NCBI GenBank assembly: GCA_033763475.1
Contig: JANRKM010000012.1
Coordinates: forward strand, 1-24,317
Length of the DNA stretch: 24,317 nucleotides
From: Kofleriaceae bacterium
GTDB taxonomy: Bacteria; Myxococcota_A; Polyangia; Haliangiales; Haliangiaceae
Direction of reading: 5' to 3'
Part shown: positions 1,138 through 21,339 of the stretch, piece by piece
How the letters are laid out: every line of letters begins with the position of its first letter
Numbering within the stretch: the stretch's first letter is position 1
Translations under genes and position numbers: made by a program
Notes under the pieces: generated by a model
What the model was told of the DNA's origin: nothing
The model's database searches: none
The model's input: the letters and a program-made list of their open reading frames with translations, nothing else

Positions 1138-2136
1138 GTGCTGCGCATGGCGCGAACTAACGGGCGATTTTCAACGCGGTGCGGAGCTCGTGGTAACCGC
1201 GAGACGCCGTTCTTGCGCGTGGAGAACAACCAGGTGACGGATCTCGTCGAGGTCGAGACGCTCGATCACGTGTTCGTGCAGCTGCGGCTGTCGTATCGCG
1301 TGGACTTCGAGGGTGACCCGCTGCGGTGGTTCAACGTCGAGAACCACGTGAAGTTCCTGTGCGACCACGTGCGCTCGGTGCTGAAGGGCAAGATCCGGAA
1401 GGTGGCGATCGAGGCGTTCTATGCGTGCTCGACCGACCGCATCCGCGATCTGATCCTCGGCGTCCCGGCGGATGGTAAGCGCCCGGGGCTGCCGTTCCCC
1501 AACGGCATGCGCATCGTCGATGTCGACGTCCTCCTCGACGAGGCGCTGCTCGACCAGAGCCAGCACGAGGTCGTGCGCTCGAACATCGCGATGTCGAACC
1601 TCGGGCGCGAGCTCGCGGTGACCAAGCAGCGCGAGGCCATCGCGCGCGAGACCGCCGAGGTGAAGGCTCTCACGGCCGTTCGCCACGACGAGCTCTCGCG
1701 CGAGCTGGCCGCGAGCGAGCTCGCCACCGTGCTCGCGAAGCTGACCAACACGTTGCGCGAGACCGACGAGCGCAAGAAGGTCGTGGAGGCGGAGCAGACG
1801 ATCGAGGTCATCAAGCTGGAGAAGCGACTCGAGCGCGTGAAGCGCGAGCGCGAGCAGGAGCTGACGTTCTTCTCGCGCGAGCAGGACAAGCGCATCGAGC
1901 TGCTGCGGGCCGAGGCCGAGACCGCCGTCCAGCGGTTCACGGCAGCGTCGGGCAACTTCAGCGAGGCGCTGCTCCAGCTCGGCCGGCACGAGACGCTGGT
2001 CAAGGTCGCGCAGGGGTGGGGTGTGCAGCGGGTGATCGAGGGCGAGTCGCTCGGCGATACGCTGTCGCGGTTGTTCAACCACACGCTGCTCAAGCCGCTC
2101 GTTGACAAGCTCACGCTTGGCGATGAGACGGACTAA
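1138..2136 (+). CDS. SPFH (band-7 / flotillin / vault-shoulder-like) domain protein with a long C-terminal coiled coil
   Basis: The segment HVRSVLKGKIRKVAIEAFYACSTDRIRDLILG...MRIVDVDVL matches the C-terminal half of SPFH domains. It is followed by about 150 aa of heptad-like E/R/K/A-rich sequence. The N-terminal beta-strands of a full SPFH domain appear to be absent. Exact start is uncertain. Confidence 0.4.
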   Translation: MLRMARTNGRFSTRCGARGNRETPFLRVENNQVTDLVEVETLDHVFVQLRLSYRVDFEGDPLRWFNVENHVKFLCDHVRSVLKGKIRKVAIEAFYACSTDRIRDLILGVPADGKRPGLPFPNGMRIVDVDVLLDEALLDQSQHEVVRSNIAMSNLGRELAVTKQREAIARETAEVKALTAVRHDELSRELAASELATVLAKLTNTLRETDERKKVVEAEQTIEVIKLEKRLERVKREREQELTFFSREQDKRIELLRAEAETAVQRFTAASGNFSEALLQLGRHETLVKVAQGWGVQRVIEGESLGDTLSRLFNHTLLKPLVDKLTLGDETD

Positions 2137-2849: not shown

Positions 2850-2997
2850 ATAGTGCCGGGGCCACTGGTCGCGGCATCTCCAAAGTCGAGTGCCTTGTCC
2901 CGGTCATGGGGATTCCGGCGACATGGCCGGAAATGTCGGGGGCAAAGCAGGCCTTTGCCGGCATTGTCCCTGGCTGGCATGGTCTATCGTCCACGCG

Positions 2998-4368
2998 ATG
3001 AAGAAGCTGCTTTGTCTCGTTACGTTGATGGCGTGTAGTGACCCGAGCGAACAGCAGCCGGTCGATGCCCCCTCCGGGGATGATAGCCAGATCGTCACCG
3101 ACGGACCGACCGACCGGCCCGTTACGGTGACGGTCATGGATGAGGGCGTCGGCGTCGCGGGCGTCAGCGTCTACTTCCAGCAGCCGGACCATACGGTCTT
3201 CACGAAGGTGGTGACCAACGCTTCGGGTGTGGCGGCCACCGTGGTCGCCGGCGGTGGCGCGGTCACCGTCGTCGATCCGTTCGCCAACAACACGCTGGCC
3301 GGAGCCCCGTCGCACTCGCTCAGGACCTACCTCGGGGTGCAGCCGGGCGACGAGCTCCTCGTGGTGGGTGACGATGACGGCGAGAACGCGACCGTGACGG
3401 TGACGATCCCGGCGATCAAGGACTTCGCCTTTGCCAATCTAGAGTCGTCGTGCGGCGGCACCACCCTCGAAGCGCTCACGGGCACCCAGGTCGAGCTCTA
3501 TGGCTGCGATGGCATGGCGGACCTCGTCGTCGTCGCGTACGACGAGCTCTCCAATCCGCTCGGCTACCTCTACAAGGCCAACGTCGCGATCACCGATCAG
3601 GGCACGGTGAACCTCGGCAGCGAGACGTACACCGCCGTCCCCAATGCGTCGTTCTCATACGCGAGCATCCCGGCGGCGTTCGGGAACGTGTTTGGTACCA
3701 ACACGCTCGTCTCTCCTCGCGGCACGATCTTCGCCACGACCTCCGGGTCCTCGCTCACCGCGGGCGCGGCCTCGGTCACGAAGCGACGTCCGCTGGTGAC
3801 GTCCACGACCTCGGTGCAGCAACTGGGATTCGATTCCGCGAGCCCGACGATGTCGGCGCACACCGTGTTCCACTGGCAACCGGCCGCGGCCGCGCACGCC
3901 TTCGACGGCACCGGCAAGTTCCTGCCCGACTTCACGGCGGCACCGAGCTACACGGCGGCGACCCGGCAGGTGTCGTGGACCTCGAGTGGCGGTGTACCGC
4001 CCGACCTCACATTCGTGTCGATCGACGCGGTCCGCAACTCCGCCGAAACGATGTTCTGGCAGTGGAAGCTGATCGCGCCCTACACCGCGACGACGTTGAC
4101 CCTCCCCGCGCTGCCCACGGAGATCGCGCAGTACGTGCCGCTTGCGACTGACTCGGTCGAGCTCGTCGAGCTCGGCGCCGCGAAGCTCCCCGGCGGCTAC
4201 GCGGCGGCGCGCCCGCTGTACTTCGCCAACCTGGACGGCCCCCCGATCACCGGCACGAGCGGCACGATCTCGCTGGTCTCCTACTCCGAGCCGAACACGG
4301 TGCGCACCACGGGACCGACGAAGGTCAAGGCCGCGATCAAGGCCAAGGCCCCGCGCGCCCGTCGCTGA
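2998..4368 (+). CDS. Large S/T/G/V-rich lipoprotein (hypothetical), predicted beta-rich. Track ORF 2890..4368; the likely start is ATG 2998.
   Basis: MKKLLCLVTLMACSDPSEQQ gives a signal peptide with Cys at +13 (lipobox-like LMAC). High GC3. Low-complexity T/S/V-rich body. K/A-rich C-terminal tail KVKAAIKAKAPRARR. Confidence 0.55.
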   Translation: MKKLLCLVTLMACSDPSEQQPVDAPSGDDSQIVTDGPTDRPVTVTVMDEGVGVAGVSVYFQQPDHTVFTKVVTNASGVAATVVAGGGAVTVVDPFANNTLAGAPSHSLRTYLGVQPGDELLVVGDDDGENATVTVTIPAIKDFAFANLESSCGGTTLEALTGTQVELYGCDGMADLVVVAYDELSNPLGYLYKANVAITDQGTVNLGSETYTAVPNASFSYASIPAAFGNVFGTNTLVSPRGTIFATTSGSSLTAGAASVTKRRPLVTSTTSVQQLGFDSASPTMSAHTVFHWQPAAAAHAFDGTGKFLPDFTAAPSYTAATRQVSWTSSGGVPPDLTFVSIDAVRNSAETMFWQWKLIAPYTATTLTLPALPTEIAQYVPLATDSVELVELGAAKLPGGYAAARPLYFANLDGPPITGTSGTISLVSYSEPNTVRTTGPTKVKAAIKAKAPRARR

Positions 4369-5376: not shown

Positions 5377-5493
5377 CGTGGTCACTCGTCGCATGTGTGG
5401 CGCTCGTGCAACGGCAACCAATGGCACCGCAGGTCGACGGCGAGATCACAGATGCACGGGTGCCTGGTGCGTAACTTGCTCGGGCACCGATCG

Positions 5494-6465
5494 ATGAAGC
5501 GTCGCGCGAGCGGAGTGATCCTCGCAGCGTGGCTCGTCGTGGGTTGCGCGAGGCAGCACCGCTACGTGAATCGCCCCGAGCAACCCGAGGAGGCCCTCGC
5601 CGCCGTCCAGCGCGAAGCGACCGAGCGCGGCCTGAAGCGCATCGGGCACCGTGCGTCGGCAGAGATCTATGTCGTCCCCGAACAGCGTGATCCGACGGGC
5701 TCACGATCCGTTTCGAGGGACGACGCGTCGTCGTGTACCGGATGGCCGTACTTCAGTCCCGAGCGATGTCTGTTCGTCCGTGCATTCCCGGCCACCGACG
5801 GTGGAAGCGTGGTCGAGATCGCGGGTGCGAACCTGGCGATCACCGAGGAGATGTTCCCCGGGGTACCGAGCCGGCGATTTGATCCCTTCCTCGTGCCACG
5901 CAAGCCGCTCGTCACGGACCTGAACATCCGCGTCGGAGTCGGGTCGTCATCGGAGAACGGCGTGTACCTCCGGATCGAGCCCGCGTTCTCCGTCGGCTGG
6001 CGAGTGCTCGAGTGGGGCGAGCGCTCGGCCCTCACGGGCGTCCGCACGGGCCTCATTCCTGGACTCGGCGTGGGCCTCGCCATGGATGCACGCGGCACCG
6101 CCCTGCGGCCAGAGCTCCACGTCGAGCTCGACCGGCAGCGCGCAGTCGATCCCGCCCCTGGCCGCACGATCCCACTCGGGCCCCGATCCGCTGTCGGGCT
6201 CTCGATCGCGGCGCTGATCGGCCTCGACGATGACCGTGGCGCGGTCGAGATTGGTGCGGACGCCCACGTCTGGCCGTGGGGCGGTGTGTTCGCGCGGGCG
6301 GGCTACGAGCTTCGATCGAGCTCGAACACGTACTTCGTGGCCGGGGTGCAGACCGACGGCGTCGCCACGGTGGTCGCCGCGGGCGTCTCGCTGCTGATCA
6401 TCGGCATCGTGTCGCTAGGTGACGTGGAGTGGAGCATTCCGTGCAGCCGATGTGAGAACCCGTAA
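5494..6465 (+). CDS. Hypothetical lipoprotein with a hydrophobic C-terminal segment. Track ORF 5395..6465; the start was chosen at ATG 5494.
   Basis: MKRRASGVILAAWLVVGCARQ gives a textbook lipobox, LVVGC. Strong GC3. The C-terminus VATVVAAGVSLLIIGIVSLG looks like a TM or anchor segment. Confidence 0.5.
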   Translation: MKRRASGVILAAWLVVGCARQHRYVNRPEQPEEALAAVQREATERGLKRIGHRASAEIYVVPEQRDPTGSRSVSRDDASSCTGWPYFSPERCLFVRAFPATDGGSVVEIAGANLAITEEMFPGVPSRRFDPFLVPRKPLVTDLNIRVGVGSSSENGVYLRIEPAFSVGWRVLEWGERSALTGVRTGLIPGLGVGLAMDARGTALRPELHVELDRQRAVDPAPGRTIPLGPRSAVGLSIAALIGLDDDRGAVEIGADAHVWPWGGVFARAGYELRSSSNTYFVAGVQTDGVATVVAAGVSLLIIGIVSLGDVEWSIPCSRCENP

Positions 6466-6841: not shown

Positions 6842-7384
6842 CTACGGGCTATCCATCATCCGCAGCAGCGCCGTCGTCGTGTTCCAGTTCCGGATCGTCA
6901 TCTGCTTGTAGACGGGGAGCGCCGCCACCTTGCCCATCCGGCTCTGCGTGCGTTTCGCCTCGAGCCGCGCGTAGTACAGCACCCCGCGTCCGGGCCACAC
7001 CTGGTCGACGCCGTCCTTGCGCGGCATCATCTCGGCCACCGCAGCCCCCGAGAGCGGCGGCATCAGGAACAGCACGTCATAGCGGTACTTCGCCGCCTGC
7101 GTGCCGAACCCCTCCGGCGCCTTGTCCACGATCGTGCGCATTTCGGACAGTGACCGCACGACCAGCGTCGCCTCGTACGCGAACGTCTTGGCGAGCATGG
7201 CCGCGATCTTCGTCAGGACGACGGCTTCTTTCGCGGCCGCCGAGAACACCACGTTGCCGCTCTGGATGTACGTGCCCACGTCGGTGAAGCCCTGCTTCTC
7301 GAAGCAGGCCTTCAGGTCCGTCATCTTGATCACGTTGTTGCCGCCGACATTGATGCCGCGCAGCAAGGCCACGTACCGCACCAT
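6842..7384 (-). CDS. DUF1697 family protein
   Basis: MVRYVALLRGINVGGNNVIKMTDLKACFEKQGFTDVGTYIQSGNVVF is the canonical DUF1697 N-terminal signature. The ORF is clean, at 180 aa. Its start codon is 2 nt after the stop of the upstream gene, so the two are translationally coupled. Confidence 0.8.
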   Translation of the reverse strand: MVRYVALLRGINVGGNNVIKMTDLKACFEKQGFTDVGTYIQSGNVVFSAAAKEAVVLTKIAAMLAKTFAYEATLVVRSLSEMRTIVDKAPEGFGTQAAKYRYDVLFLMPPLSGAAVAEMMPRKDGVDQVWPGRGVLYYARLEAKRTQSRMGKVAALPVYKQMTIRNWNTTTALLRMMDSP

Positions 7385-7386
7385 CG

Positions 7387-7735
7387 TTAGCGGTTCCGCT
7401 GGTGCAAGATGATCGAGTTTCCTTCGCTATCGAGGATGATGTCGCCCAGGAAGCGCACGCCCGCTGCCTGCAGCCGCCCAGGGGTGGCATCGAGGTCGCT
7501 CACCTGCCGTTCGGCGCCGCCAGCCCGCGCGTGAAGCCGAGCAGATCCATCGTAGAAGTTGCGCGCACGCTTCGGGTCCTCGACCTCGAACATCGTGAAC
7601 GCGACCTTCTGGAACTCTGGCTTCTTGGCCTTCGCCGGCTTGGCCTTCGCTCTCGGGGTGGCCTTCTTCGCGACCGCCTTGGTTTTGGGCTTCACCGCCT
7701 TCGCCCTCGTTACCTTCATCGCCATGCGAGGGGTG
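7387..7735 (-). CDS. Fusion of a histone-H1-like K/A/P-rich N-terminal region with a short VOC (glyoxalase/bleomycin-resistance-like) module. Track ORF 7387..8232; the start was chosen at MAMKV (7735).
   Basis: MAMKVTRAKAVKPKTKAVAKKATPRAKAKPAKAKKPEF is an H1/AlgP-like tail. It is followed by FTMFEVEDPKRARNFYDG...VSDLDATPGRLQAAGVRFLGDIILDSEGNSIIL, which carries the beta1-alpha1 and C-terminal DPxGN-like motifs of VOC domains. The part of the track ORF upstream of 7735 is antisense to the CdnL-like gene and was rejected. Confidence 0.5.
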
Positions 7736-7878
7736 ATACCACTCGAGGCGTGGAGCCCTTGGTCAAACCGGTGGTCTGTGCGTGTGGAGATCGCGCATTC
7801 GCGGTGCGCATCGCGTAGCAACGTCAACGCTTCGATCGCGGTGGCGAGGATCGCCGCCACGTCCGAGATGCGATATGG

Positions 7879-8817
7879 ATGGCCATGCTTCAGGTCGGTC
7901 AAGCCGTCGTGGTTCGAGGTCGTGGGCTCGGCACCGTCGCGAGTGTTCGCGATGACGCGATCATCGTTGCCGAACAGGATCTCGAACCGGGCGAGGAGAG
8001 CCAGTTCGAGATCCCGGTGGAACGTGCTGGCGACGCAATCCGCGCCGTCGCGACGCCGGGGGAAGCCGAGCGCGCGCTCGCGCTCATTGCGACGCGGCCC
8101 GAGCGCTTGCCCGCCGACGAACGCAGCATCGCGTATCGTCGTGCGTTCAAGCGCGGCGACCTCGACGAACAAGCGCGCATGCTCGCGGCGATGTATCGCG
8201 GTCCGGCCGAAACACCGGAGCGGCAGTACCAAGATCTCATTGAGCGAAGCGTTTTTGGCGAGCTGGCCCTCGTGCTCAACACTTCACGGAAAGCGCTGCG
8301 CGCACGGATTCGTGCGGCGGCCCTCGGGGAACCTCCACCCCGCTCACTAGGACTCGCCGATCGCGGGAACGAACTCGCGGCGGTCACGGTTCCGCCGATC
8401 GATGGCTTTGATGCGATCGGCGCGTTCGCGGTCGACGCGAAAATCGGGGTTGGCGAAGCGAATGCGGACGTCGTTCTACCGGCTGAACCTGGCATCTGGC
8501 TTGCGTATGCTGTGCGTGACGAGGACGCCGATGATTTTTCCGAGCTTGTGGCCGTCCACGTGACGCGGATCGGCGAGTTCGCAGAACTTCGTCGACGTGC
8601 GAAGAAAGCGGGCAAGGCTCCGTTCGAGGGCGCGCACATGTCGATCTTCGACGAAGCTGTCGTCGATGACCGCGAAGTTGTCGACCGTATGCTTCAAGCT
8701 GACTGCGAGATCGTTGATGGGCGTAGCGCGTCGCTCGGGCTCGGCGGCGACGGCATCGCAGAGGTTCGAGTTGCGCGCGATGGCGACCGCGCGATCTGCG
8801 TCCGTGTTCTCCTCTGA
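7879..8817 (+). CDS. CarD/CdnL/TRCF-family RNA-polymerase-interacting protein (a divergent CdnL paralogue) with an extra ~150-aa C-terminal domain, tentatively DUF4241-like
   Basis: The N-terminal ~160 aa align with CdnL. LQVGQAVVVRGRGLGTV matches FKTGDKAVYPGQGVGEV. RLPADERSIAYRRAFKRGDLDEQARMLAAMY matches TWNRRYREYMEKIKTGSVFEIAEVLRDLY. PERQYQDLIERSVFGELALVL matches the CdnL C-terminal helix. The C-terminal part (DGFDAIGAFAVD...GLGGDGIAEVRVARDGDRAICVRVLL) is an additional domain. Confidence 0.6.
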   Translation: MAMLQVGQAVVVRGRGLGTVASVRDDAIIVAEQDLEPGEESQFEIPVERAGDAIRAVATPGEAERALALIATRPERLPADERSIAYRRAFKRGDLDEQARMLAAMYRGPAETPERQYQDLIERSVFGELALVLNTSRKALRARIRAAALGEPPPRSLGLADRGNELAAVTVPPIDGFDAIGAFAVDAKIGVGEANADVVLPAEPGIWLAYAVRDEDADDFSELVAVHVTRIGEFAELRRRAKKAGKAPFEGAHMSIFDEAVVDDREVVDRMLQADCEIVDGRSASLGLGGDGIAEVRVARDGDRAICVRVLL

Positions 8818-8830
8818 GCCCAGACGCGTC

Positions 8831-9298
8831 CTACGCGGCGCGCTTGGCCGACGACGACGCAGCGCCCGCGAGGTCGAGTCGGCGCAGCGCATTGACGAGC
8901 TTCGGCATGTCTGCCTTGCCCATCAGCCGCCGCCACGTCTTCTCGGCCTCCATCGTTCCGGCGAGCGCCCAGCGCAGCGCCATCCTTCCGCTCTGCCACT
9001 TCGGCGGCGCGAGCGCGATCGCCGTCGCCTCCGATCGCAGCTCGTCGATCCGGACACACCGTGCGCGGAGGTGGACCTCGGCGAGCGGCTGGCTGCGCTC
9101 GCCCGCGATCTCGGTAAGCAGCGTGTGCCGAACCGGGTAGTAGACGCGTCCGGCTTGCTGGGTCTGCATGCGAACCGCACACGAGCCAAGGATCGCGAGG
9201 TGACGCGCTGCTTCGGCGATCCCGATCGCCCCCGTCTCGACCTCCGACGCCGGCACCGGCAAAGCGTGCGCGTGGACCCACTCGCCGTCGATGCTCAT
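8831..9298 (-). CDS. Hypothetical protein, 155 aa, family not recognised
   Basis: Strong GC3 coding bias on the minus strand. The overlapping plus-strand ORF 8597..9610 is Arg-rich noise. It is convergent with the CdnL-like gene. The 12-mer TATGCGCCCTTG lies 18 nt upstream of its start. Confidence 0.4.
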   Translation of the reverse strand: MSIDGEWVHAHALPVPASEVETGAIGIAEAARHLAILGSCAVRMQTQQAGRVYYPVRHTLLTEIAGERSQPLAEVHLRARCVRIDELRSEATAIALAPPKWQSGRMALRWALAGTMEAEKTWRRLMGKADMPKLVNALRRLDLAGAASSSAKRAA

Positions 9299-9566: not shown

Positions 9567-10448
9567 TTGCTCGCTGTGCCCTCCCGTGCACACCGTGCCG
9601 GCCGTCGTGATTGCGTCGCTGCTCGGCTCGGTCACGCACGCGGAGGAGTCACCACCGTTGCCTCCCCAGCCGCCTCCGGAGACACGCGCGGCTCGTACAC
9701 GGGCGGGTTGTGGGCGTGGGGCTCGATCGGCAGCTGGCTCCACTACCGCGCGATGATCGGCAACAACCTGAGCCAGTTCGGCGTAGACGCCGGTCAGCTC
9801 GACATGGGATTGCGCACGTATTCGGCTGCGGTGTGGTGGACGACGTCGAACTTCAACCTGTACGAAGCGTACGGCGACTTCGAGGGCCACAAGCACGTCG
9901 CCGCGAGCGTGGGTGCCGCATTCACGCAGAGCCGCGAGGATGCGCAATCGCAGCCCGGCACCAACGCGCCCGAGAACGTGCAGATCCGCGTGTCCGACGG
10001 CCGCGTGATCTTCGATCCCGATGCGTTCGGCCCGGGCACGCAGATCACGCGCGCGACCTACCGCATGCTCGCGATCGACGGCGCCGTGAAGCGGCACGGG
10101 CTCTCGCTCGAAGGCGAGTGGTACTACCGCTGGGTCGACGACCTCGTCGTCCTGGGGCCGGTGCCGTTCACGCATCTGCGCGACACGGGGTTCCAGCTGC
10201 AGGCTGCGGTGATGGTGCGGCCGAAGCAGGTGATGGTGTATGCCGCGGGCTCGAAGATCTTCGGCGAGTACGGAGATCCGTGGGACATCGGCCTCGGCGT
10301 GAACTACTACCCGTTCCACAACCGCGCGATGCGGCTGAACGGCGAGCTCATCATCGTCAACCGCTCCCCCGTCGGCAACCTCAACTCGCCGCTCGTCGTC
10401 GGTGCCGATGGCGTGATCGCCGTGGCCAACCTCGAGCTGTTCTTCTAA
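9567..10448 (+). CDS. Outer-membrane beta-barrel (porin-like) protein. The N-terminus is probably in another frame, with a signal-peptide-like segment at 9586..9680 in the +1 frame.
   Basis: Alternating amphipathic beta-strand patterns: GEWYYRWV, VMVYAAGSKIFG, WDIGLGVNYYPF, LIIVNRSP. The C-terminus ends ...VIAVANLELFF, a terminal-Phe barrel signature. The track frame has no signal peptide. The adjacent frame encodes VPAVVIASLLGSVTHA-EESPPLPPQPPPE, which would join TRGSYTGGLWAW... after a 1-nt indel near 9670–9690. Confidence 0.5.
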   Translation: MLAVPSRAHRAGRRDCVAARLGHARGGVTTVASPAASGDTRGSYTGGLWAWGSIGSWLHYRAMIGNNLSQFGVDAGQLDMGLRTYSAAVWWTTSNFNLYEAYGDFEGHKHVAASVGAAFTQSREDAQSQPGTNAPENVQIRVSDGRVIFDPDAFGPGTQITRATYRMLAIDGAVKRHGLSLEGEWYYRWVDDLVVLGPVPFTHLRDTGFQLQAAVMVRPKQVMVYAAGSKIFGEYGDPWDIGLGVNYYPFHNRAMRLNGELIIVNRSPVGNLNSPLVVGADGVIAVANLELFF

Positions 10449-10460
10449 CGGCGGCGTTCC

Positions 10461-12464
10461 TTATGGTTCGGCGTCGTCGCTCGGCGTGACGTCGAACGGC
10501 GAATCCGACTCGACCTCGTCGGCGTCGTAGTCCCCCGTGTCGGGGAGCCGGCCGCGCTTGTTGGAGCCGAAGCCACCGAGGGCGCCGAACATCCCGCCCG
10601 ACGGCGTGCACGCGGCGACGGGCGCGGCCGGTAGCGCGCGGGCGGATCTGCGCAGCGTGCTGAACGAATGCCGCGCGACGGTGCCGTCGGTGCGGCCGAG
10701 GTAGATGTGGTCGCCCGCGAACACGAGGGACGTGGTGTTGGGCGCGGGCATGACGTCTGCGGACGATGCGCCCGGGCTCCACGCGACCAGCTTGCCGTCG
10801 GCGATCGCCGTGACGACGTCGCGCCCGTTCCACGCGATGGCCCGGTCCTGCGTGGCCTCGTGCGGGAACGCGAGCGAGGCGACGGGCTTGCCGGTCGTGG
10901 CATCCAGCACGGTGATGCCGCGCTCGTCGATGAACGCGACCCGCGCGCCATCGGGCGAGATGGCCGGGCCTTTGCCGCCGCATTCGTAGGGTGCCTCGAC
11001 GACGACCCGACGCTCGATCGCGTCGGCGATCGTGAGTTTGCGCGAGCCGTACATCGCGACGCGACGCCCGTCCGGCGTGGCGGATGCGTGGGCGTCACTG
11101 GTGAGATCCTCCGCGGGCGCCTCGGTGGCCCAGCGTTGTTTCAGCGTCTCGTCGAGCACGAACAACTGGCCGCTCGCCGTGTACCAGACGCCCCCGCCGG
11201 CGACCGGGCCCAGCTCGCGCACGAGGAGGCCGAGGCCGGTCCGGTCAGCGGACAGCGCGACATGATCGATTCGCGTCGCGCCGTGCCAGCGCTCGAGCAC
11301 AGTCTTGTCCCGCGGACGCAGCGTGAGCGCGACCAGCGTGACCTCGTCGTTCGTCGCGGTCGCCAGCACGTCGCGCGCGGGCCCGCCGAGCTCGATGATC
11401 GGCCGCGCGGTCTCGGTCGACCAGATCCACGCAGAGCCGTCGCCGAACGAGTGGGAGACGAGCATGCGCCCCGCGACGTCGAGCTCACGCACCTCGCCGC
11501 GCGTTCCCTCGATCTCTGCGAGCGGCTTCCAGTCGGAGGTGCGCCACAGATGCAACACGTTGTCGTTGCCGCCGAGCGCGAGCAGGTCACCACGCGGCGA
11601 CCAGGCGAGCGTGCGCACGTATGCCTGCGAGCCGCGCAGCGTGGTGACGGGCTCGCCGCCGGGCAGCGCGACCACGCGCACTTCCTCCTCGCACGCGATC
11701 GCGAGCCGATCGCTGGCGGCGTTGATCGCGAGTGCGCCTGGATTGCAGCTGAACGGCACCGACGCGAGGGTCTTGCCGTCGTCGACGCGGTAGACGTCGA
11801 CCTCCCAGTGATCGTGCTTGCCCGAGAACGTGCCGACGGCCAGCAGCGCATGGTCGGGAGACAGCCCGTAGATGCTCGTGTTGCCGAGCGCGAAGATGCG
11901 ATGGCGCTTGCCGGTCGCGAGGTCCCAGATGCCGACGGTTTGCTGCGAGCGGCCTGCGACGACCCACGTGCCGACGATCTCCGGCGACGCGTAGTGCCGC
12001 GAGTGCTCGAGGGCGATGCCCGGCTTGCGACTCGCGAGGTCGAACACGGTGAGCGGGGTCCCCTCCTCGCCGCCGACCACCGCGCGCGTGCCGTCGGAGG
12101 CTACGCGCCTGGCTGCGACTGCGGTGAATGGCGTGGTCTTTCCCGTGCGGACGTCGACGACGACGGGCTTGTCACCGGCGAGGAGGAGCGACTGCGCATC
12201 GAGGAACGCCACGCCGCTGGTCCACGGGAGCAGGCCTTCGGCCACCACGCGGCGCCTGCCGGTACGATCGAACGCGACGACCGATCCGCCCGCGGTGGTG
12301 ACGATGACGTCGTCACCGTGAAACCCGATGTGCTCGAGCGAGCCCGGCACGCGCCACTCCTCGGCGCCGAATACGGCGGCCACCGGATCGCGCTCCGGCG
12401 ACGAGGTGACCTGCGCGCTACCGCACGCCAGTAGGGTCGTAGATACGACGACAGCTCGCAGCAT
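10461..12464 (-). CDS. Lipoprotein with WD40-type beta-propeller repeats. Track ORF 10461..12773; the start was chosen at MLRAVVVSTTLLACG (12464).
   Basis: Signal peptide with lipobox LLAC. Multiple WD-like repeats: LAWSPRGDLLALGGNDNVLHLWRTSD, VSHSFGDGSAWIWS, ALSADRTGLGLLV and others. Strong GC3. The overlapping antisense ORF 10668..12434 was rejected. Confidence 0.65.
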   Translation of the reverse strand: MLRAVVVSTTLLACGSAQVTSSPERDPVAAVFGAEEWRVPGSLEHIGFHGDDVIVTTAGGSVVAFDRTGRRRVVAEGLLPWTSGVAFLDAQSLLLAGDKPVVVDVRTGKTTPFTAVAARRVASDGTRAVVGGEEGTPLTVFDLASRKPGIALEHSRHYASPEIVGTWVVAGRSQQTVGIWDLATGKRHRIFALGNTSIYGLSPDHALLAVGTFSGKHDHWEVDVYRVDDGKTLASVPFSCNPGALAINAASDRLAIACEEEVRVVALPGGEPVTTLRGSQAYVRTLAWSPRGDLLALGGNDNVLHLWRTSDWKPLAEIEGTRGEVRELDVAGRMLVSHSFGDGSAWIWSTETARPIIELGGPARDVLATATNDEVTLVALTLRPRDKTVLERWHGATRIDHVALSADRTGLGLLVRELGPVAGGGVWYTASGQLFVLDETLKQRWATEAPAEDLTSDAHASATPDGRRVAMYGSRKLTIADAIERRVVVEAPYECGGKGPAISPDGARVAFIDERGITVLDATTGKPVASLAFPHEATQDRAIAWNGRDVVTAIADGKLVAWSPGASSADVMPAPNTTSLVFAGDHIYLGRTDGTVARHSFSTLRRSARALPAAPVAACTPSGGMFGALGGFGSNKRGRLPDTGDYDADEVESDSPFDVTPSDDAEP

Positions 12465-12515
12465 GATGCCCGGCGAGTATCGCCGAGCCAGGGCCTCGGG
12501 CGGTACATCACATCG

Positions 12516-12800
12516 GTGACCATCTGGCAGTTCTCGACGCCACCGACCCAGCCGCGCTCCCCCGAGGTCGTCCTCGTTGCCTTCGGACGCGGCCCGCTCA
12601 CCGGTCCGCTCGAGCTGCCCGCGGCCGCTGCCGAGCTGTGCGAGCTGCGCACCATCGATCGGCGCGTCGCGCCCGACTGGTTCGATGCCTGGCGCGGCGG
12701 CTCGCTGCGCGCGATCGCCGAGAAGGACCTCGGCCCGCAGCTCGCCGACCTCGACGCCAGCGATCACGCGCACGTGATCACGAGCGCCCCCAAAGCACCC
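12516..12800 (+). CDS. Possible small protein or gene remnant (…DWFDAWRGGSLRAIAEKDLGPQLADLDASDHAHVIT…). The 3' end is uncertain because it runs into the palindrome-rich 12782..12886 segment.
   Basis: High GC3 in this frame between 12516 and about 12790. No recognisable family. It is divergent from the WD40 gene with only ~50 bp between the starts. Confidence 0.2.
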
Positions 12801-12886
12801 GCTGACCTCGGCTACCTATGCGCATCACTTTCGGAGCGCCCAGGTGGATCAGTTTGGGGGCGCCGGAATCACCTGGCTGGGCGCGG
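12782..12886 (+). promoter_or_regulatory. Interleaved palindromes in the leader region upstream of the YARHG gene. Stem 1 is GCGCCCCCAAA (12784–94) with TTTGGGGGCGC (12853–63). Stem 2 is GCGCCCAGGTGG (12836–47) with CACCTGGctGGGCGC (12870–84). CTATGCGCATCAC sits in the loop of stem 1. This gives a pseudoknot-like topology.
   Basis: Read directly. The 5' arm of stem 2 lies inside the loop of stem 1, and its 3' arm lies downstream of stem 1. The whole segment is ~130 nt upstream of ATG 13013. Confidence 0.4.
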
Positions 12887-13012
12887 TGGAATAGCCAGAT
12901 GCGGCAACACGTTCCGATGAGTGTCGAAGGCCGCCGTCCGTGCGCTCGTGTCCGGGTGCTCCGACGCGCGTGGTACGTTCGCGCTTGCTCGCACACGTCA
13001 CCCGGGTAACCC

Positions 13013-14394
13013 ATGAGAAGCGTGCTCCTGTTCACGTCGCTGGTCCCCCTCGCCGTGGTGGATGCGGCAAGTCCGATTCGACACGGTCCGCCTCCCCCCC
13101 GGGCGCGACGAGCCCGGCCATCCCGTCGGCTGGGACCGCCGCGCCCGCGGCGCCCGCGGGCACGGAGCCGAGGTTCGATCCGGCGACGATGTGCGAGTCG
13201 CGATGCCTCCTTTTGACCCAGCATCCGCTGGGCAACCTGGCCTTCGGAAACAGCTACTGCAAGGCCTGCGGCGACCGCGATCCGAAGGCCTGCGAGGGTG
13301 TCACTCCCTTCTTCGATTCCAACAGCTGTGCGGAGGCCGACGAGCTCAGGAACTGCATCTACGCGGCCTACGGCAACCCCTTCAAGAAGCCCAAGTGGCA
13401 GAAGCACTTCGCCAAGGAGCCTTGGTACAAGCCGAACCCCGCGTTCGACGAGTCCATGCTCTCCAAGGTCGCGCGGCAGAACGTCACGGAGCTGAAGAAG
13501 CTGGGGTGCACCGCGGTGCGCGCGAAGGCCAACGACGGCACCCCCGCGCATCCGTTGAACGAGCGCGGCGGCTGGAGCCTGCGCGAGGATCTCGACGGCG
13601 ACGGGATGCCGGAGAGCATCGAGGCCGAGAAGGCGCAGCTTCGCGTCGGGGAGCGGACGACCGAGACCGGGCTCGAGTCGTGGGACTACGAGAACGGCGA
13701 CATCTTCATCGTCGACCTCGACCGGTCCGACAAGCTGCGGGAGGTCGCCATCCTCAGGCGCGGCGACGACGACTACGCGGAGACGACGTTCTACCGCTAC
13801 GCCGACGGGAAGCTCTGGTCGTTGGGGGCCGTCGAGAACTGGGTGCAGCCCGGCGAGCTCGCGGGCGACGGCACGGTGAGCGAGACGTCCGGGCAGTGCG
13901 GCGTCACCCTCGTCGTGCGGTACGCGATCAGGAAGGGGGAGCTTCAGGAGATCGAGCGCAATGAGACGGGCAAGCGAGAGCCCGACTGCGAAGAGTCGGC
14001 GTGCCCGCACGTCTTCGTCGCGCAGGCGGACGGTCGTTTTCGCTACGTCGGCGAGATCCTGCGTGACCTCGTCGGATCCTCCGCGCGCGCCCGTCAGGCG
14101 CTGCCCCTGGCTGCGGCCGACGCCCATGACGGGAAGATCGTCGTGCGGATCTCCGAGCGCGAGAGCGAGACCACGTTCCTCGACGACATCTACCTGTCGG
14201 TAGGTGGCGTCCGAGTCGCGCCGAGCGCGTGTGCAGCGGGTCCCTCACCGTCGCCCCCCGCGGAGTGCGTGTCGGATGGGCTCATGCGACGCCTCGAGTA
14301 CGGCGACGACTTGCTCCTCGAGTTCATGGTCGGCCGTGTGCCCCACCGTGCCGAGGTGACGCTCTGGGGCACCGGCTACTATGTGCGGCGGTAG
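13013..14394 (+). CDS. Secreted YARHG-domain protein. A frameshift at a C7 homopolymer (13094–13100) separates the signal peptide from the body.
   Basis: MRSVLLFTSLVPLAVVDAAS (ORF 13013..13216) is a signal peptide. With one extra C in the C7 run it continues in frame as GPPPPPGATSPAIPSAGTAAPAAPAGTEP...MCESRC… (ORF 12940..14394). LRNCIYAAYGNPFKKPKWQKHFAKEPWYKPNPAFDESMLSKVARQNVTELKKL matches the YARHG domain consensus (lRNeIyARhGy.F....w...F....WY.pn). Confidence 0.6.
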
Positions 14395-16480: not shown

Positions 16481-17509
16481 TCAACGTGGGTTGGCGACGC
16501 TGGCGATGAAGAGGCGCGCGCCGTTCACCCCGGGTAGCTCGAGCTCCTGGGGCTGCGGTCCTTCGGTCATCAGCTGGGAGAGGCGGTTCGTCAGGGGCTC
16601 GATCGCCTCCGGCGGTAGGAAGATCACCGCGCCGCGCATTCCTTCTCGCTTCTCGATCGACCACCCGGCCGGGCCGGGGCGGAAGCAGACGAGCGAATCG
16701 CCGCTGCGTGGTCCTCCGAACAGAACCATCTCCTCGCCGTGACGGACGCGGTGCTTGATTGCCATCAGCAGATCGGGGATGCAGGCTAGGTCGACGTGGA
16801 TGTCCAGCCGCTTGCCCCGGACCAGCCCCCCGTGCACCTCCCAATGCAGCGGAAGCTGGCCGCGCATACCGACCGACGCCGCTCTGCTCGCCATCGCTCG
16901 CTCCATGTCGACGAGGAAGCTCGCGTCGGCGAGGAAGCTGGGGCGTCCCGCGATCGTCTGCAGCAGCGGATCGCGCGCCCTCATCAGGTCGGAGAACGCG
17001 AGCACGTCCCATGATCGCGCCGTGTCGTGTTCGGCCACGTTCACGCCGACCATCTGCAGGTAGCCATGGTTGCCGTTGCGGGATCGGGTGGGGGCGAGCC
17101 CGACGTCCTCCACGAAGAGCACGTTGCAGATTTCATCGCGGGTAGCCGGCGCGACCAGCGGCATGCAATGCCCGGAACCGATGAAGGTCTCGGTCGTCGC
17201 CAGGTAATCGCGGATGCCTTGCATCCAGTGGAGCACCCATCCGAAGTCGAGCTGCGCCTCGACGGCGGGGATCCGACAGCTGAGCTCGAAGCCGAAGCCG
17301 GACACGTCGGGGTCGTCGGACTCCTTGTCCCAGAGCTCGGTGAAGCCCTGGCTGACCACCAGCCAGTGCGGGCTCGGCGCGCTCACGTGGACCGCCACCG
17401 CGCCGTTTAACGGCTCGGCCCCCTCGACCGGCGCGCACAAGACGATCTCCGCGCCCGGGTGCGCGGCGCGCACGCTGTTCTCCAGGGCGTCGAAGGGGTC
17501 CACGGTCAT
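16481..17509 (-). CDS. SUFU (suppressor-of-fused) family protein, bacterial type. These are frequently immunity proteins of polymorphic toxin systems.
   Basis: HVSAPSPHWLVVSQGFTELWDKESDDPDVSGFGFELSCRIP…WVLHWMQGIRDYL matches the bacterial SUFU core (HYVTYGLSELY.KESDDPE.SGFGFELTFRL…LARYVF). It is a clean 342-aa ORF with good GC3. Confidence 0.6.
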   Translation of the reverse strand: MTVDPFDALENSVRAAHPGAEIVLCAPVEGAEPLNGAVAVHVSAPSPHWLVVSQGFTELWDKESDDPDVSGFGFELSCRIPAVEAQLDFGWVLHWMQGIRDYLATTETFIGSGHCMPLVAPATRDEICNVLFVEDVGLAPTRSRNGNHGYLQMVGVNVAEHDTARSWDVLAFSDLMRARDPLLQTIAGRPSFLADASFLVDMERAMASRAASVGMRGQLPLHWEVHGGLVRGKRLDIHVDLACIPDLLMAIKHRVRHGEEMVLFGGPRSGDSLVCFRPGPAGWSIEKREGMRGAVIFLPPEAIEPLTNRLSQLMTEGPQPQELELPGVNGARLFIASVANPR

Positions 17510-18010: not shown

Positions 18011-18129
18011 GTTTATGCGCTCGGGGCTCGCGTGCCCGGATCGCGATCGAGGGAGCCTGCGCGGTGGCGAGCGGCTCACCGGCTGAATGTATCGGGCACC
18101 CACGGGCCGGACTTCGCTACAACCCGCGG

Positions 18130-18708
18130 ATGTCGTTCGAGGACATCGCACGTCGGATGGAAGCGCGGCGGCAACAGGAGTCTGGTTTCGGGTTCCCGGA
18201 GGCCGCGCAGCCTGCACGCGAGCCCGCCCCGCCCAGCGCGCCCGCGCCACCGCGATCGCTCGGCGACGTCACGGGCGCGGCGGTGGTCCAGCTCGCGATC
18301 CTGACCGCGCTCGGCATGATCGTCAGCTATGTTGTTGCGTTCGTCGTGATCAAGCTCGGCGCTGGCGGCATCCGACCGGTGATCGGCATCCCTGGACTCA
18401 TGGTGGTGGGGCTCGCGTGGGCGTGGAGCAGCGAGCCCGTGCGCACGCCCGAACGCCTGGCGGAGCTCGGGGTGTCGGCGCTCGTCGGCACGGTGCTCGT
18501 CCTGGCGGCGTGGCCGAAGCCGCTCTCGTTGACCAGCGACTCGAAGCTCGACGCGAATGTCCACGATGGCGTCGCGACGTTGACCGTCGAGACCACGAAG
18601 CGGTTGACCGAGCTCCCTGGAATTTCGCAGCAGCTCGTGTGGTGGGCGCTGATCGGATGCGGGGCCGTCGCGGGCTGCGCGCTCGTACGCCTGCTCAAAC
18701 GAAGCTGA
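18130..18708 (+). CDS. Hypothetical membrane protein with ~4 TM helices. Track ORF 18064..18708; the start was chosen at MSFEDIARR.
   Basis: The N-terminus is charged, and there is a Pro/Ala-rich linker. Hydrophobic segments: AAVVQLAILTALGMIVSYVVAFVVIKL, IGIPGLMVVGLAWAW, VSALVGTVLVLAAW, LVWWALIGCGAVAGCALV. The antisense ORFs are noise. Confidence 0.45.
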   Translation: MSFEDIARRMEARRQQESGFGFPEAAQPAREPAPPSAPAPPRSLGDVTGAAVVQLAILTALGMIVSYVVAFVVIKLGAGGIRPVIGIPGLMVVGLAWAWSSEPVRTPERLAELGVSALVGTVLVLAAWPKPLSLTSDSKLDANVHDGVATLTVETTKRLTELPGISQQLVWWALIGCGAVAGCALVRLLKRS

Positions 18709-18781
18709 CGGGGCCCGGACTCTACGAGTTCGCGGCCACGTCGAGCGACGAAGCTCGCAAGCGCGACTGCGGTGCGTTCTT

Positions 18782-19807
18782 CTACGGCGTCGGCGGCTTC
18801 GACGGGTCGACGGTAAACGTGCCGATGTCCGTCGTCTTGCCCGCCTCGAGCGCGAGCCCTTTCATCAACGCGGGCGACGGCTGCGTCAGCACCACGAGCA
18901 CCGATGGGCCGGCCTTGGTCTCGATGCGGAATGAACCATCCGCGTTGGACATCGGCGGCATCCCCTCGAGAGAGATCCGCGTGCCGCCATCGGGGGTCGC
19001 GGGGATCACGATCACGCCGGTGTCGCCGAGCGGTTTGCCCTGCGCGTCGACGAGCTTGCCCACCACCACGGCGTTGGCGACGAGCACGATGTCGCGCTTC
19101 GCCGCCTGCCCCGCGACCACGGTGACCTTGGCCTCGGCGTTGCCGTCGCTGGAGCGCACGCGCAGCGTGTAGTCACCCGGATCGACGCGGCCGAGCTTGA
19201 AGGTGCCGCCGGTGAACGTGCGCGTCGTCTTCGTCGGGCCTTCGACGTCCAGCGTGAACAGCGCGACCGGCCCCTGGGCTCCGGTGACCGTGCCCGACAG
19301 CGACGTGACGCCCACGGCCTGGATCGCGAGCTTCGCGTCGGGCTCGACGCCGAGCTTGCGCCCACGCAGCGCGCCCTGTTGCGCCTCGGCGATCACCTCG
19401 TACTTCGCGTGCGGCAGGTTGCGCACCGCGAACCGGCCCTGCGCATCGGTGAGCACCGGCGGAAATTCACCGCCCTCGCTGCCCTCACCGTCGTCGCTCG
19501 TCGTGACGTGCGTCATCCGCGACGAGGACTTCTGCTCGCCATCCTTCTTCGCCCTCTGCTCCGCGGCTTCCTCTTCCTCGACCATGCCGCGGAGGAGCGC
19601 CTCGAGATCCTGATGCACGGAGACCCAGGCGTCGGCGAGCGGCTGTCCGTCGGGGCCGGTCACCACACCTTCGATCACGCCATTCGGAAGATCGTTCCTT
19701 AAGGATAAGACGAACAAGACCGCTTTCGGGCCGCGAGCGGTTCGCCACGGGGAGCGTCCTGGTGGCAGATCGCTCGTCACCGATGCCACGAACGTCATGC
19801 AGCTCAC
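18782..19807 (-). CDS. Protein with three carboxypeptidase-regulatory-like (CarbopepD_reg_2 / transthyretin-like) domains and an acidic insert. The start is uncertain and no signal peptide is seen.
   Basis: Repeated motifs GVVTGPDGQPLADAWVSV…TDAQGRFAVRNLPHAKYEV, GTVTGAQGPVA…GDYTLRV and GKLVDAQGKPLGDTGVIV…SNADGSFRIE. The insert is EEEEAAEQRAKKDGEQKSSS. There is a low-GC patch (19690–19730) inside the annotated 5' end. Confidence 0.55.
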   Translation of the reverse strand: MSCMTFVASVTSDLPPGRSPWRTARGPKAVLFVLSLRNDLPNGVIEGVVTGPDGQPLADAWVSVHQDLEALLRGMVEEEEAAEQRAKKDGEQKSSSRMTHVTTSDDGEGSEGGEFPPVLTDAQGRFAVRNLPHAKYEVIAEAQQGALRGRKLGVEPDAKLAIQAVGVTSLSGTVTGAQGPVALFTLDVEGPTKTTRTFTGGTFKLGRVDPGDYTLRVRSSDGNAEAKVTVVAGQAAKRDIVLVANAVVVGKLVDAQGKPLGDTGVIVIPATPDGGTRISLEGMPPMSNADGSFRIETKAGPSVLVVLTQPSPALMKGLALEAGKTTDIGTFTVDPSKPPTP

Positions 19808-20248: not shown

Positions 20249-20620
20249 GTGCGCGTCAGGATCGGTTGGGATGGTTCCGCCAATGCTCTGGCGTTCGCGA
20301 CCGACAATTTGCTGCAGTCATCCGAGAGCGTTCACGACATGGACATGCTCCATGACTTCATGTGGCTGGTGCGCACGGCCGGCGCTCTCAAGGTCGTCGT
20401 GCACGGTTTCAGTACCCCGGGCTTCATCAAGCCCGCCGAAGCCGATCAGTATCTCGCGTCCGTGTTGCAGGCCAGCGGCAGCGCACCGGACTCACACGGC
20501 AGCGAGTCGCTGGCAAACCTCGAAGGCCTCACCGACCGCCAGATGTTGCGCTCGGCTATCGCGCACGCGTCGACGGACATCAGATCGTCCTCCACTTCTC
20601 TCGCCCACTCCACGATGTGA
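20249..20620 (+). CDS. Hypothetical small protein in a lower-GC island. GTG start, 123 aa, family not recognised.
   Basis: GC3 of about 75% in this frame, with a clean stop. Local GC is lower than the flanks, consistent with foreign DNA. Confidence 0.25.
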   Translation: MRVRIGWDGSANALAFATDNLLQSSESVHDMDMLHDFMWLVRTAGALKVVVHGFSTPGFIKPAEADQYLASVLQASGSAPDSHGSESLANLEGLTDRQMLRSAIAHASTDIRSSSTSLAHSTM

Positions 20621-20735
20621 CGTTTACGCACACGGTGACAGTGTGACCTGGCTCGGCGTGCAGGCACAGCTATCTCTCTCGGTCCGGGCCCGCCGCTCGC
20701 AACTCGACACCGAGCTGGCCGATGTGCTGGCGCGG

Positions 20736-21056
20736 CTACCTACCGGTCATCGTGCGGAACCGACGCCACGCTCGACGCCACGGACGAGCCCAAACATAGA
20801 CGCGCAAGTAGTGCTCGATCGGAAAGCCCGTACCGCTGATCCAGAGATGGCCATCGACGCGGTCAACGAACAACGGTGCATTGCCGATCAGGCCGTGGTC
20901 GCGGTCACCAGTCTCGACGAACTGGCGCGTGTTGTAGAAAAATACCCAGCCCCACCGTCGTTCGATCGTATGTCGGTCGACGATCACGACGTCATGTGTG
21001 CTTGTAGCGCGCAAGTGGCTCTCAGCGATGAAACGCGCCTCGTCGTGAGTCAGCAT
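20736..21056 (-). CDS. Imm35 / YrhB-family immunity protein, an orphan immunity gene of polymorphic toxin systems. The track ORF 20736..21779 was trimmed to start at MLTHDE.
   Basis: MLTHDEARFIAESHL…DVVIVDRHTIERRWGWVFFYNTRQFVETGDRDHGLIGNAPLFVDRVDGHLWISGTGFPIEHYLRVY matches YrhB/Imm35 hallmarks (GWVFFY…; LAGNAPIIVDK.DG…TGTA.P.E.Y). The region has lower GC. The upstream part of the track ORF is Arg-rich and antisense to the integrase remnant. Confidence 0.7.
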   Translation of the reverse strand: MLTHDEARFIAESHLRATSTHDVVIVDRHTIERRWGWVFFYNTRQFVETGDRDHGLIGNAPLFVDRVDGHLWISGTGFPIEHYLRVYVWARPWRRAWRRFRTMTGR

Positions 21057-21339
21057 GGCGTCGACGACTATACTCTGCGCGCGGGCGCGACTCGGCTCGC
21101 GGCTTCGTGCTCGTGGAAACGGTTGCGACGCTTCTCGGGGCCAGCGTCGAGGAGAGCCCGGCACGCGAAAGCGGATAAGCGAATCGATGGATCGCGAGGC
21201 GCTGGTCCGCGTGCACACCGGTCCCGGTTCGTGGTGGCTGTCGAGCCACAAGACCATGCGCCGAGGTCGCGCGTCGATGCGCGAGGCCAAGCTGAGATAT
21301 CCGAGGTTTCGGGTGCCGATCGGCGACTCGAGGGATCCG

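Follow-up and report, generated by a model that had tools for sequence, protein, structure and literature searches.

The CdnL/CarD factors regulate the initiation of transcription and are essential in mycobacteria and myxobacteria. To our knowledge, only two architectures have been discussed so far in myxobacteria, that is, the stand-alone CdnL and the CarD protein with its basic tail. The latter combines a CdnL-like N-terminal domain with an HMGA-like tail, which is histone H1-like in Anaeromyxobacter, and works together with CarG (PMC2919716). In the present work we analyzed a stretch of 24,317 nucleotides from a Kofleriaceae bacterium (assembly GCA_033763475.1, contig JANRKM010000012.1; hereinafter, the window) and, in particular, a gene at positions 7879–8817 whose product joins a CdnL-type module to a C-terminal domain related to DUF4241. 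Domain databases do not capture this combination; in the CarD_CdnL_TRCF family it represents a new variant of architecture, no literature search having been aimed at it. The gene and the two parts of its product are the following:

7879–8817, forward strand: CdnL-like/DUF4241-like gene, recognized from its open reading frame (ORF), 17 close homologues, the ratio of nonsynonymous to synonymous substitution rates (dN/dS) and an AlphaFold2 model.
7885–8328, forward strand: N-terminal CarD/CdnL module (Foldseek, family profile A7 and hhalign).
8332–8814, forward strand: C-terminal DUF4241-like alpha/beta domain (residues 152–312, structured from about residue 177).

The ORF codes for 312 amino acids (aa) when read from the ATG at 7879 and for 310 aa from the ATG at 7885, and it ends exactly with the residues ...GLGGDGIAEVRVARDGDRAICVRVLL that a preliminary description of this DNA had quoted for it. 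The second ATG is the more conserved of the two and likely represents the start of the gene, since the first one reads ATA in a homologous locus (L004). The model deposited at NCBI (SFX73_00575) is shorter (236 aa) and begins at residue 77; its start falls about 76 codons too late (7879–8106), with the loss of the whole RID-type domain.

The 17 close homologues share 51–88% identity with the 312-aa protein, and the JGI label of most of them is the COG name for CarD/CdnL/TRCF regulators. Residues 1–76 are conserved in 16 homologues, with an identity down to 51%. The dN/dS of the gene is 0.16–0.19 in the comparisons with loci L004, L003, and L018; against the closest two homologues, it is 0.13 over residues 1–150 and 0.19–0.20 over residues 151–312. 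The former value implies that the 76 N-terminal residues omitted by NCBI are under selection. Taken together, conservation and substitution pattern show that 7879/7885–8817 is a functional gene under selection and belongs to a family of Myxococcota. As for its base composition, the GC content at third codon positions (GC3) is also low in the closest homologues (0.69–0.74; L003, L004), and it is 0.84–0.93 in the more distant ones.

An AlphaFold2 model of the 312-aa protein was built on the alignment of close homologues, and the full-length model reached a predicted local distance difference test (pLDDT) value of 92.3 and a predicted template modelling (pTM) score of 0.77. According to this model, the N-terminal module consists of a Tudor-like RID-type beta domain (residues ~5–57) and of a five-helix CarD_C-type domain (residues ~60–150). 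The top seven matches retrieved by Foldseek from the PDB are all CarD/CdnL proteins (Thermus CarD, Mycobacterium tuberculosis (Mtb) CarD, Myxococcus xanthus CdnL, and a homologue from Streptomyces); the alignments span about 160 columns, with E values from 1e-6 to 1e-4 and TMt from 0.5 to 0.73. The comparison of profiles pointed to the same proteins. Profile A7, i.e., the N-module alignment of 30 broad-family members gathered via the search with the C-domain, matched M. xanthus CdnL (2lwj) with E=1.7e-18, positions 2–150 being aligned to positions 5–162 over both subdomains, and also matched Mtb CarD (4kbm; E=1e-10) and Thermus CarD (E=4e-4). Furthermore, hhalign between the N-module and Mtb CarD, for which the query sequence was identical to 4kbm_B, returned a probability of 97.1% and E=5e-11.

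Among the relatives, P0183 scores 26.3 bits and P0226 22.7 bits with the Pfam RID model; P0183 exceeds the Pfam gathering score for CarD_TRCF_RID, and P0226 bears the NCBI name of CarD family transcriptional regulator. No CarD was found in the PDB by phmmer and the near-clade profile, the best match being a spurious one (Bfr2), and the 312-aa protein had no match in PADLOC or PHROGs. The near-clade alignment (A1) could be aligned weakly to Mtb CarD by hhalign (26% probability, with W85 set against R82), and its register was replaced by those of the A7 alignment and of the hidden Markov model (HMM) alignment to 2lwj, which are mutually consistent. On the basis of the predicted fold, the profile search, and hhalign, the membership of residues ~1–150 in the CarD/CdnL family can be considered established. 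This is what the preliminary description had claimed for the N-terminus; of the HMM check that it proposed, the direct Pfam and NCBIfam search with the window protein turned out negative, and the search with the broad profile A7 led to CdnL/CarD.

The C-terminal domain of the window protein is not matched by the Pfam DUF4241 model (PF14025). DUF4241 is, at the same time, the commonest Pfam match of the C-domains of its relatives, limited to a 15-residue stretch (GxGDGxYPV) at 11–18 bits, the cut-off being 27; on family members, Pfam also retrieves CarD RID or CarD_C in a few cases. Probing plasmids by tblastn with one remote C-domain gave a weak match in Brevibacillus laterosporus, and the corresponding ORF (L020:1492–2028) is a genuine DUF4241 member (34.6 bits; cut-off 27), whose homologues on plasmids of Priestia, Bacillus, and Ruminococcus carry the DUF4241 annotation. 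For the C-domain, the broad alignment A6, having the window sequence as its first row, was compared by hhalign with the single Brevibacillus DUF4241 protein (94.2% probability) and with a four-sequence DUF4241 alignment (A8); the latter comparison returned a probability of 97.8% and E=8.9e-13 over 134 columns, corresponding to the whole domain. A word-indexed protein search with A6 reached no DUF4241 proteins. The two groups have in common a G-x-W strand, a His (H227), an acidic-Gly strand (vDSG; E250-G-A in the window protein), D258, and the GDG at 290–292, and in the family under study the near-invariant residues of the C-domain are G205, W207, H227, D258, and G290-D291-G292. The relationship of the C-terminal ~150 residues with DUF4241, judged from these profiles, is that of a distant homologue and is solid, the link being transitive. 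The DUF4241-like domain that had been tentatively proposed was, in other words, the right one, and it is the broad family profile only that leads to it.

Concerning the plasmid-borne relatives, Ruminococcus albus pRUMAL01 (L023 2147–3420) harbors a DUF4241 protein with an N-terminal extension of ~115 residues, whose gene runs 4 nt into that of a macro-domain protein, with a TnpB gene adjoining. On a Priestia megaterium plasmid (L021 1254–3031), the DUF4241 gene lies near spoIIP and a gene for a sigma-70-family sigma factor.

An exhaustive HMM search with the C-domain profile retrieved 108 representatives (50%-identity clusters) at E<=1e-3, most of them 300–350 aa long and with the C-domain at the C-terminus. 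Of these, about 60 are recognized by the N-module profile of the window family as well, and stand-alone DUF4241-like members lacking the N-module are also present. The named members come solely from metagenome-assembled genomes of Myxococcota (Kofleriaceae, Haliangiales, Polyangiaceae, Myxococcaceae, and Myxococcota bacterium). Scans of genomes and metagenomes for further loci, whose patterns were near-clade-specific, yielded 1 and 3 loci, respectively. Moreover, two longer layouts were observed: P0171 (458 aa) and P0176 (457 aa) have two CdnL-like N-modules in tandem ahead of the DUF4241-like domain, and P0174 (594 aa), P0190 (561 aa), and P0200 (581 aa) have ~280 additional residues C-terminal to it.

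The residues with a function in CdnL were mapped onto the N-module by means of the HMM alignment to 2lwj, a MAFFT alignment, and column counts, and were read against the M. xanthus mutants (PMC4182748). The residues contacting the beta subunit of RNA polymerase (RNAP), i.e., F36/M49/P51 in M. xanthus and Y34/R47/P49 in Mtb (PMC4182748), map to E32/E44/P46, with the Pro alone retained. The conserved Trp that opens the second helix of the CdnL C-domain (W85 in Mtb, W88 in M. xanthus) becomes A79; the near clade has A, T, or L at this position, and 7 of the 30 broad-family members retain the Trp. In M. xanthus CdnL, W88A is tolerated and R90A/R91A/R93A abolishes open-complex stabilization (PMC4182748). 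This basic stretch corresponds to E81/R82/I84, in which only R82 is kept, and R87, R88, K91, and R92 are found further along the same helix. VRGRG occupies the position of YPGQG in M. xanthus CdnL, a replacement that, like the divergence of the canonical CdnL positions, had already been pointed out and is seen in the alignment. Lastly, P46, R55, G7, G16, and, in the core of the helical domain, L102, Y106, E122, and E128 are conserved family-wide. As far as the alignments predict, the CdnL fold is kept and its canonical functional surface is substantially altered.

From these data a possible mode of action can be depicted. The CdnL-type module would dock on the beta lobe of RNAP and bring with it the DUF4241-type domain, whose task there would be sensing or the binding of a partner. 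The protein would probably not stabilize open complexes as the housekeeping CdnL does, and it is more likely a specialized or competing accessory factor; a different role is suggested because the Trp wedge is absent, the basic stretch is reduced, and two of the RNAP-beta contacts are an invariant Glu. The overall account, i.e., a selected CdnL–DUF4241 family that has no gene partner and acts through a module on RNAP, seems to us reasonably probable, and the RNAP-binding step is its weakest link.

Several points weigh against this account. Firstly, binding to RNAP is a prediction from sequence and fold, and the residues were mapped by sequence alignment. Secondly, the near clade has an invariant Glu at both E32 and E44, the counterparts of F36 and M49 of M. 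xanthus, in which the single change F36A is enough to abolish RNAP-beta binding and gives the phenotype of the deletion (PMC4182748). Thirdly, the 312-aa protein matches no CarD-family model of Pfam or NCBIfam at E<=1, its sequence being too divergent for the curated models. The near-clade profile alone, when compared with DUF4241, gave a probability of 2.4% in the same register, and it is for this reason that the DUF4241 link is a transitive one; no paper in the literature searched mentions DUF4241. Finally, the GC3 of the gene is 0.68 vs 0.82–0.94 for most neighboring genes.

The main rival explanation would see in the N-terminal module a repurposed fold that no longer binds RNAP; the main job would be that of the DUF4241 domain, and the N-module would be a scaffold or would bind some other partner. 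It draws on the presence of Glu at positions 32 and 44 in place of hydrophobic contacts, the first of which is sufficient on its own to break binding in M. xanthus when mutated (F36A), on A79 in place of the Trp wedge, on R82 as the sole survivor of the essential R90/R91/R93, on a score of the window protein below every Pfam CarD threshold, and on the family members in which a DUF4241-like domain occurs without the N-module. However, both CdnL subdomains have been kept under purifying selection (dN/dS of 0.13 in the N half), and the eight residues from P46 to E128 listed above are conserved across the family. Moreover, the presence of the Trp in 7 out of 30 broad-family members implies that the family grades into canonical CdnL, and the loss of this residue is tolerated in M. 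xanthus (W88A). For these reasons we regard the repurposing of the fold as rather unlikely, and we keep to a module that would act on RNAP.

This account might be extended further. The CdnL–DUF4241 proteins could be Myxococcota-wide accessory factors, tethered to RNAP through a CdnL-type anchor deprived of the wedge that stabilizes open complexes. At the beta lobe they would compete with the housekeeping CdnL or modulate it, and their DUF4241 domain, equipped with a conserved His, an acidic residue, and the GDG site, would be a switch responsive to a ligand or a partner. We consider this extension unlikely. If true, it would provide the first functional context for DUF4241 and a third architecture, after CdnL and CarD, in the myxobacterial CarD_CdnL_TRCF repertoire.

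Upstream of the CdnL-like gene, and on the opposite strand, the window harbors two adjacent genes:

7387–7725, reverse strand: degraded VOC gene with a K/A/P-rich tail (SFX73_00570), a 112-aa ORF, from the DNA alignment to locus L006.
7612–7725, reverse strand: K/A/P-rich tail of the VOC remnant, i.e., its N-terminal 38 residues.
7504–7548, reverse strand: out-of-frame stretch of the VOC remnant, 15 codons, from the alignment to L006:6001–6459.
6842–7384, reverse strand: DUF1697 gene, intact, 180 aa (PF08002, E=3.4e-39).

The VOC remnant begins with MAMKVTRAKAVKPKTKAVAKKATPRAKAKPAKAKKPEF, in which 12 K, 10 A, and 4 P are found in 38 residues, and its stop codon (TAA, 7387–7389) is separated by 2 nt from the ATG of the DUF1697 gene (7384). 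It has no direct match in Pfam or NCBIfam. The 112-aa ORF has 322 homologues, essentially all of which are ordinary PF00903 VOC proteins of ~120 aa; a small VOC clade of 140–171 aa (P0019 from Kofleriaceae, P0020–P0024, and P0038) bears the same kind of K/A-rich N-terminal tail. The DUF1697 protein covers the whole PF08002 model (positions 1–137 of 137) with 134.8 bits (cut-off 24.4). ORF, homologues, and PF08002 confirm the preliminary description of this neighbor, that is, a K/A/P-rich tail joined to a truncated VOC module and adjoining a DUF1697 gene. Mentions of DUF1697 in the literature searched are incidental, and none of them reports a function.

Compared to L006, the VOC gene of the window carries a 1-nt insertion after NFYD, which determines a +1 frameshift, and a 100-nt deletion. 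The net change is −99 nt, so that the frame is regained after 15 out-of-frame codons, which read GSARLHARAGGAERQ where the relatives have DLLGFTRGLAAPNG.... An additional 30-nt deletion was also detected. Overall, the lesions remove ~43 codons and leave 15 codons out of frame; with lesions of this kind, predicted from the alignment, the VOC fold of the remnant cannot be intact. That the ORF still runs as far as the start of DUF1697 would be compatible with a retained translational coupling. The restoration of the frame may be due to chance (1 in 3), to selection for translational coupling, or to an assembly artefact.

The intact loci with a tailed VOC gene, L006 (P0020) and L017 (P0021), have the DUF1697 gene 0–2 nt after it, and the DUF1697 genes of the window and of L006 are 82% identical over a gap-free alignment. 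A tail-less VOC relative has no adjoining DUF1697 gene. In L006 (6001–9672) and L017 (1675–5317) four genes are syntenic, coding for the K/A-tail VOC protein, DUF1697, a 532-aa protein (with a faint DUF5122 match), and a CBAH/AAT-family hydrolase. The window retains only the first two, the genes for the 532-aa protein and the CBAH being absent. The neighbors upstream of the tailed VOC gene are unrelated, with Thioredoxin_7 in one locus and a methyltransferase in the other. As the alignments to these loci show, the window pair has the characters of a decayed copy of a separately conserved tail-VOC/DUF1697 bicistron in which DUF1697 is intact, and the K/A-rich tail is characteristic of a clade in a VOC enzyme family accompanied by DUF1697.

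The bicistron and the CdnL-like gene are divergently oriented around a spacer with the following features (no strand being assigned):

7726–7878: divergent spacer, 153 bp, characterized by a palindrome, two invariant blocks, and a motif count.
7800–7815: imperfect palindrome CGCGGTGCGCATCGCG.
7811–7822: conserved block TCGCGTAGCAAC, invariant in the window, L003, L004, and L005.
7867–7878: conserved block GATGCGATATGG, invariant in the same four sequences and abutting the start codon.

The remainder of the spacer diverges among the window and the three loci, and the two blocks could be promoter, operator, or leader elements. Scans of the spacer gave no sigma-70-like site, no terminator-like site, and no Rfam match, and the palindrome CGCGGTGCGCATCGCG is not conserved upstream of the closest CdnL-like homologues. 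A shared spacer of ~140 bp with paired TGCGCAT motifs had been described. The divergent spacer is there, with a different length (153 bp), and the pairing does not hold: an exact TGCGCAT occurs only once, at 7805–7811, and what had been taken for its second copy reads CGCGCAT (7793–7799). Both were assigned to the imperfect palindrome. Throughout the window TGCGCAT is present in 15 copies vs 4.5 expected, which means that the heptamer is not specific to the spacer.

The organization of the region had suggested a "split CarD-like" regulatory pair, i.e., a two-polypeptide CarD in which the CdnL-like protein and the protein with the H1-like tail work jointly, the tail providing DNA binding. Both elements are indeed present and divergent around the 153-bp spacer, the tail stays in frame in the remnant ORF, and in Anaeromyxobacter CarD the H1-like tail is interchangeable with the HMGA domain (PMC2919716). 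We read the flanks of L001/L002, L004/L005, L007, L011/L012, L013–L015, and L019, with L003 and L018 offering just ~200 bp of upstream sequence: in the 11 informative distinct contigs, the CdnL-like gene never adjoins a VOC or DUF1697 gene, and the intact tail-VOC/DUF1697 loci L006 and L017 have no CdnL-like neighbor. This is the outcome that the preliminary description had itself named as a refutation. Against the pair there are, besides this lack of adjacency from either side, the nature of the tail, which extends the N-terminus of the enzymes of a VOC clade constantly partnered by DUF1697, the damage of the VOC part by a frameshift and two deletions, the palindrome that is not kept upstream of the closest homologues, and the confinement of CarD/CarG to Cystobacterineae (PMC2919716), the contig being from Kofleriaceae. 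The idea of a split CarD is, therefore, very improbable and we have abandoned it. The CdnL-like gene has no conserved gene partner, and its adjacency to VOC/DUF1697 is specific to the window contig; the divergent arrangement is best read as a local rearrangement that placed a damaged VOC–DUF1697 pair by an independently transcribed gene. Two neighbors that seem meaningful together are, in this case, an accidental juxtaposition.

In a more distant clade (L001, L002, and L007), a conserved block lies upstream of the CdnL-like gene, with an FHA/sigma-54 activator, a TPR protein, and a divergent protein of 350–360 aa without Pfam match; in L001 and L002, succinate-dehydrogenase-like genes are found downstream.

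That the 312-aa ORF is a chance high-GC ORF or a pseudogene, with only the 236-aa NCBI call being real, is hardly credible: the NCBI start at residue 77, a GC3 of just 0.68, and the frequency of antisense ORFs overlapping genes in the region might favor it, but the first 76 residues are kept in 16 homologues down to 51% identity, they are confidently modelled as a RID-type domain, the dN/dS over residues 1–150 is 0.13, and the profile match to CdnL starts at residue 2. One such antisense ORF (281 aa, 7387–8232) was considered as a gene and rejected, as it is merely the frame of the VOC remnant running through the spacer into the CdnL-like gene. The public annotation of this region shortens the CdnL-like gene (236 aa) and calls the decayed VOC gene an ordinary hypothetical protein.

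Elsewhere, the window codes for a protein with the major-vault-protein "shoulder" domain (1138–2136, forward strand; PF11978, E=1e-20), a 770-aa WD40 beta-propeller protein (10461–12773, reverse strand), and a SUFU-family protein (16481–17509, reverse strand; PF05076, E=2e-17). The large ORFs at 2890–4368, 5395–6465, 8831–9298, 9567–10448, 12778–14127, 18087–19172, and 20271–21743 have no match in Pfam.

The two genes of the reverse strand can be compared with the tail-VOC/DUF1697 bicistron of L006 and L017, with which the window shares the type of tail, the VOC core sequences, and the 0–2-nt junction; the window copy differs in lacking 43 codons and in having 15 out of frame, and the upstream neighbor differs at each locus.

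With the myxobacterial CarD, the window protein has in common a CarD/CdnL-type N-module followed by a C-terminal addition, in a myxobacterium. However, the addition is a basic low-complexity tail in CarD and a folded DUF4241-type domain in the window protein, and the basic tail encoded near the gene sits on a separate, unlinked protein. Moreover, Kofleriaceae lie outside the group for which CarD/CarG has been reported (PMC2919716), and no CarG was identified among the window ORFs scanned, the search being confined to the window.

The stand-alone CdnL/CarD proteins (about 160 aa; 2lwj, 4kbm, 4l5g, 4xax) show the same two-subdomain fold, with profile homology over residues 2–150, and the window protein keeps the Pro corresponding to P51 of M. 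xanthus and P49 of Mtb, together with one Arg of the basic stretch. It differs from them in the additional DUF4241-like domain of ~150 residues, in A79 for the Trp, in Glu for M. xanthus F36 and M49, and in VRGRG for YPGQG. In this respect, the CdnL–DUF4241 family is a third architecture and represents a natural experiment on a CdnL fold deprived of the canonical RNAP-contact and wedge residues.

Lastly, the stand-alone DUF4241 proteins (PF14025; L020:1492–2028, Priestia megaterium WP_180896719.1, and Ruminococcus albus WP_013483560.1) have the same length as the C-terminal domain and the same order of motifs, i.e., the G-x-W strand, the His, the acidic strand with Gly (vDSG/vEGA), the G-D-G near the C-terminus, and a final hydrophobic strand. 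The identity with the window domain is ~17%, the window clade lacks the aromatic residue that follows GDG (GDGxY), and the domain of the window protein is not free-standing but follows a CdnL module in the same polypeptide. The family may offer a handle on DUF4241.

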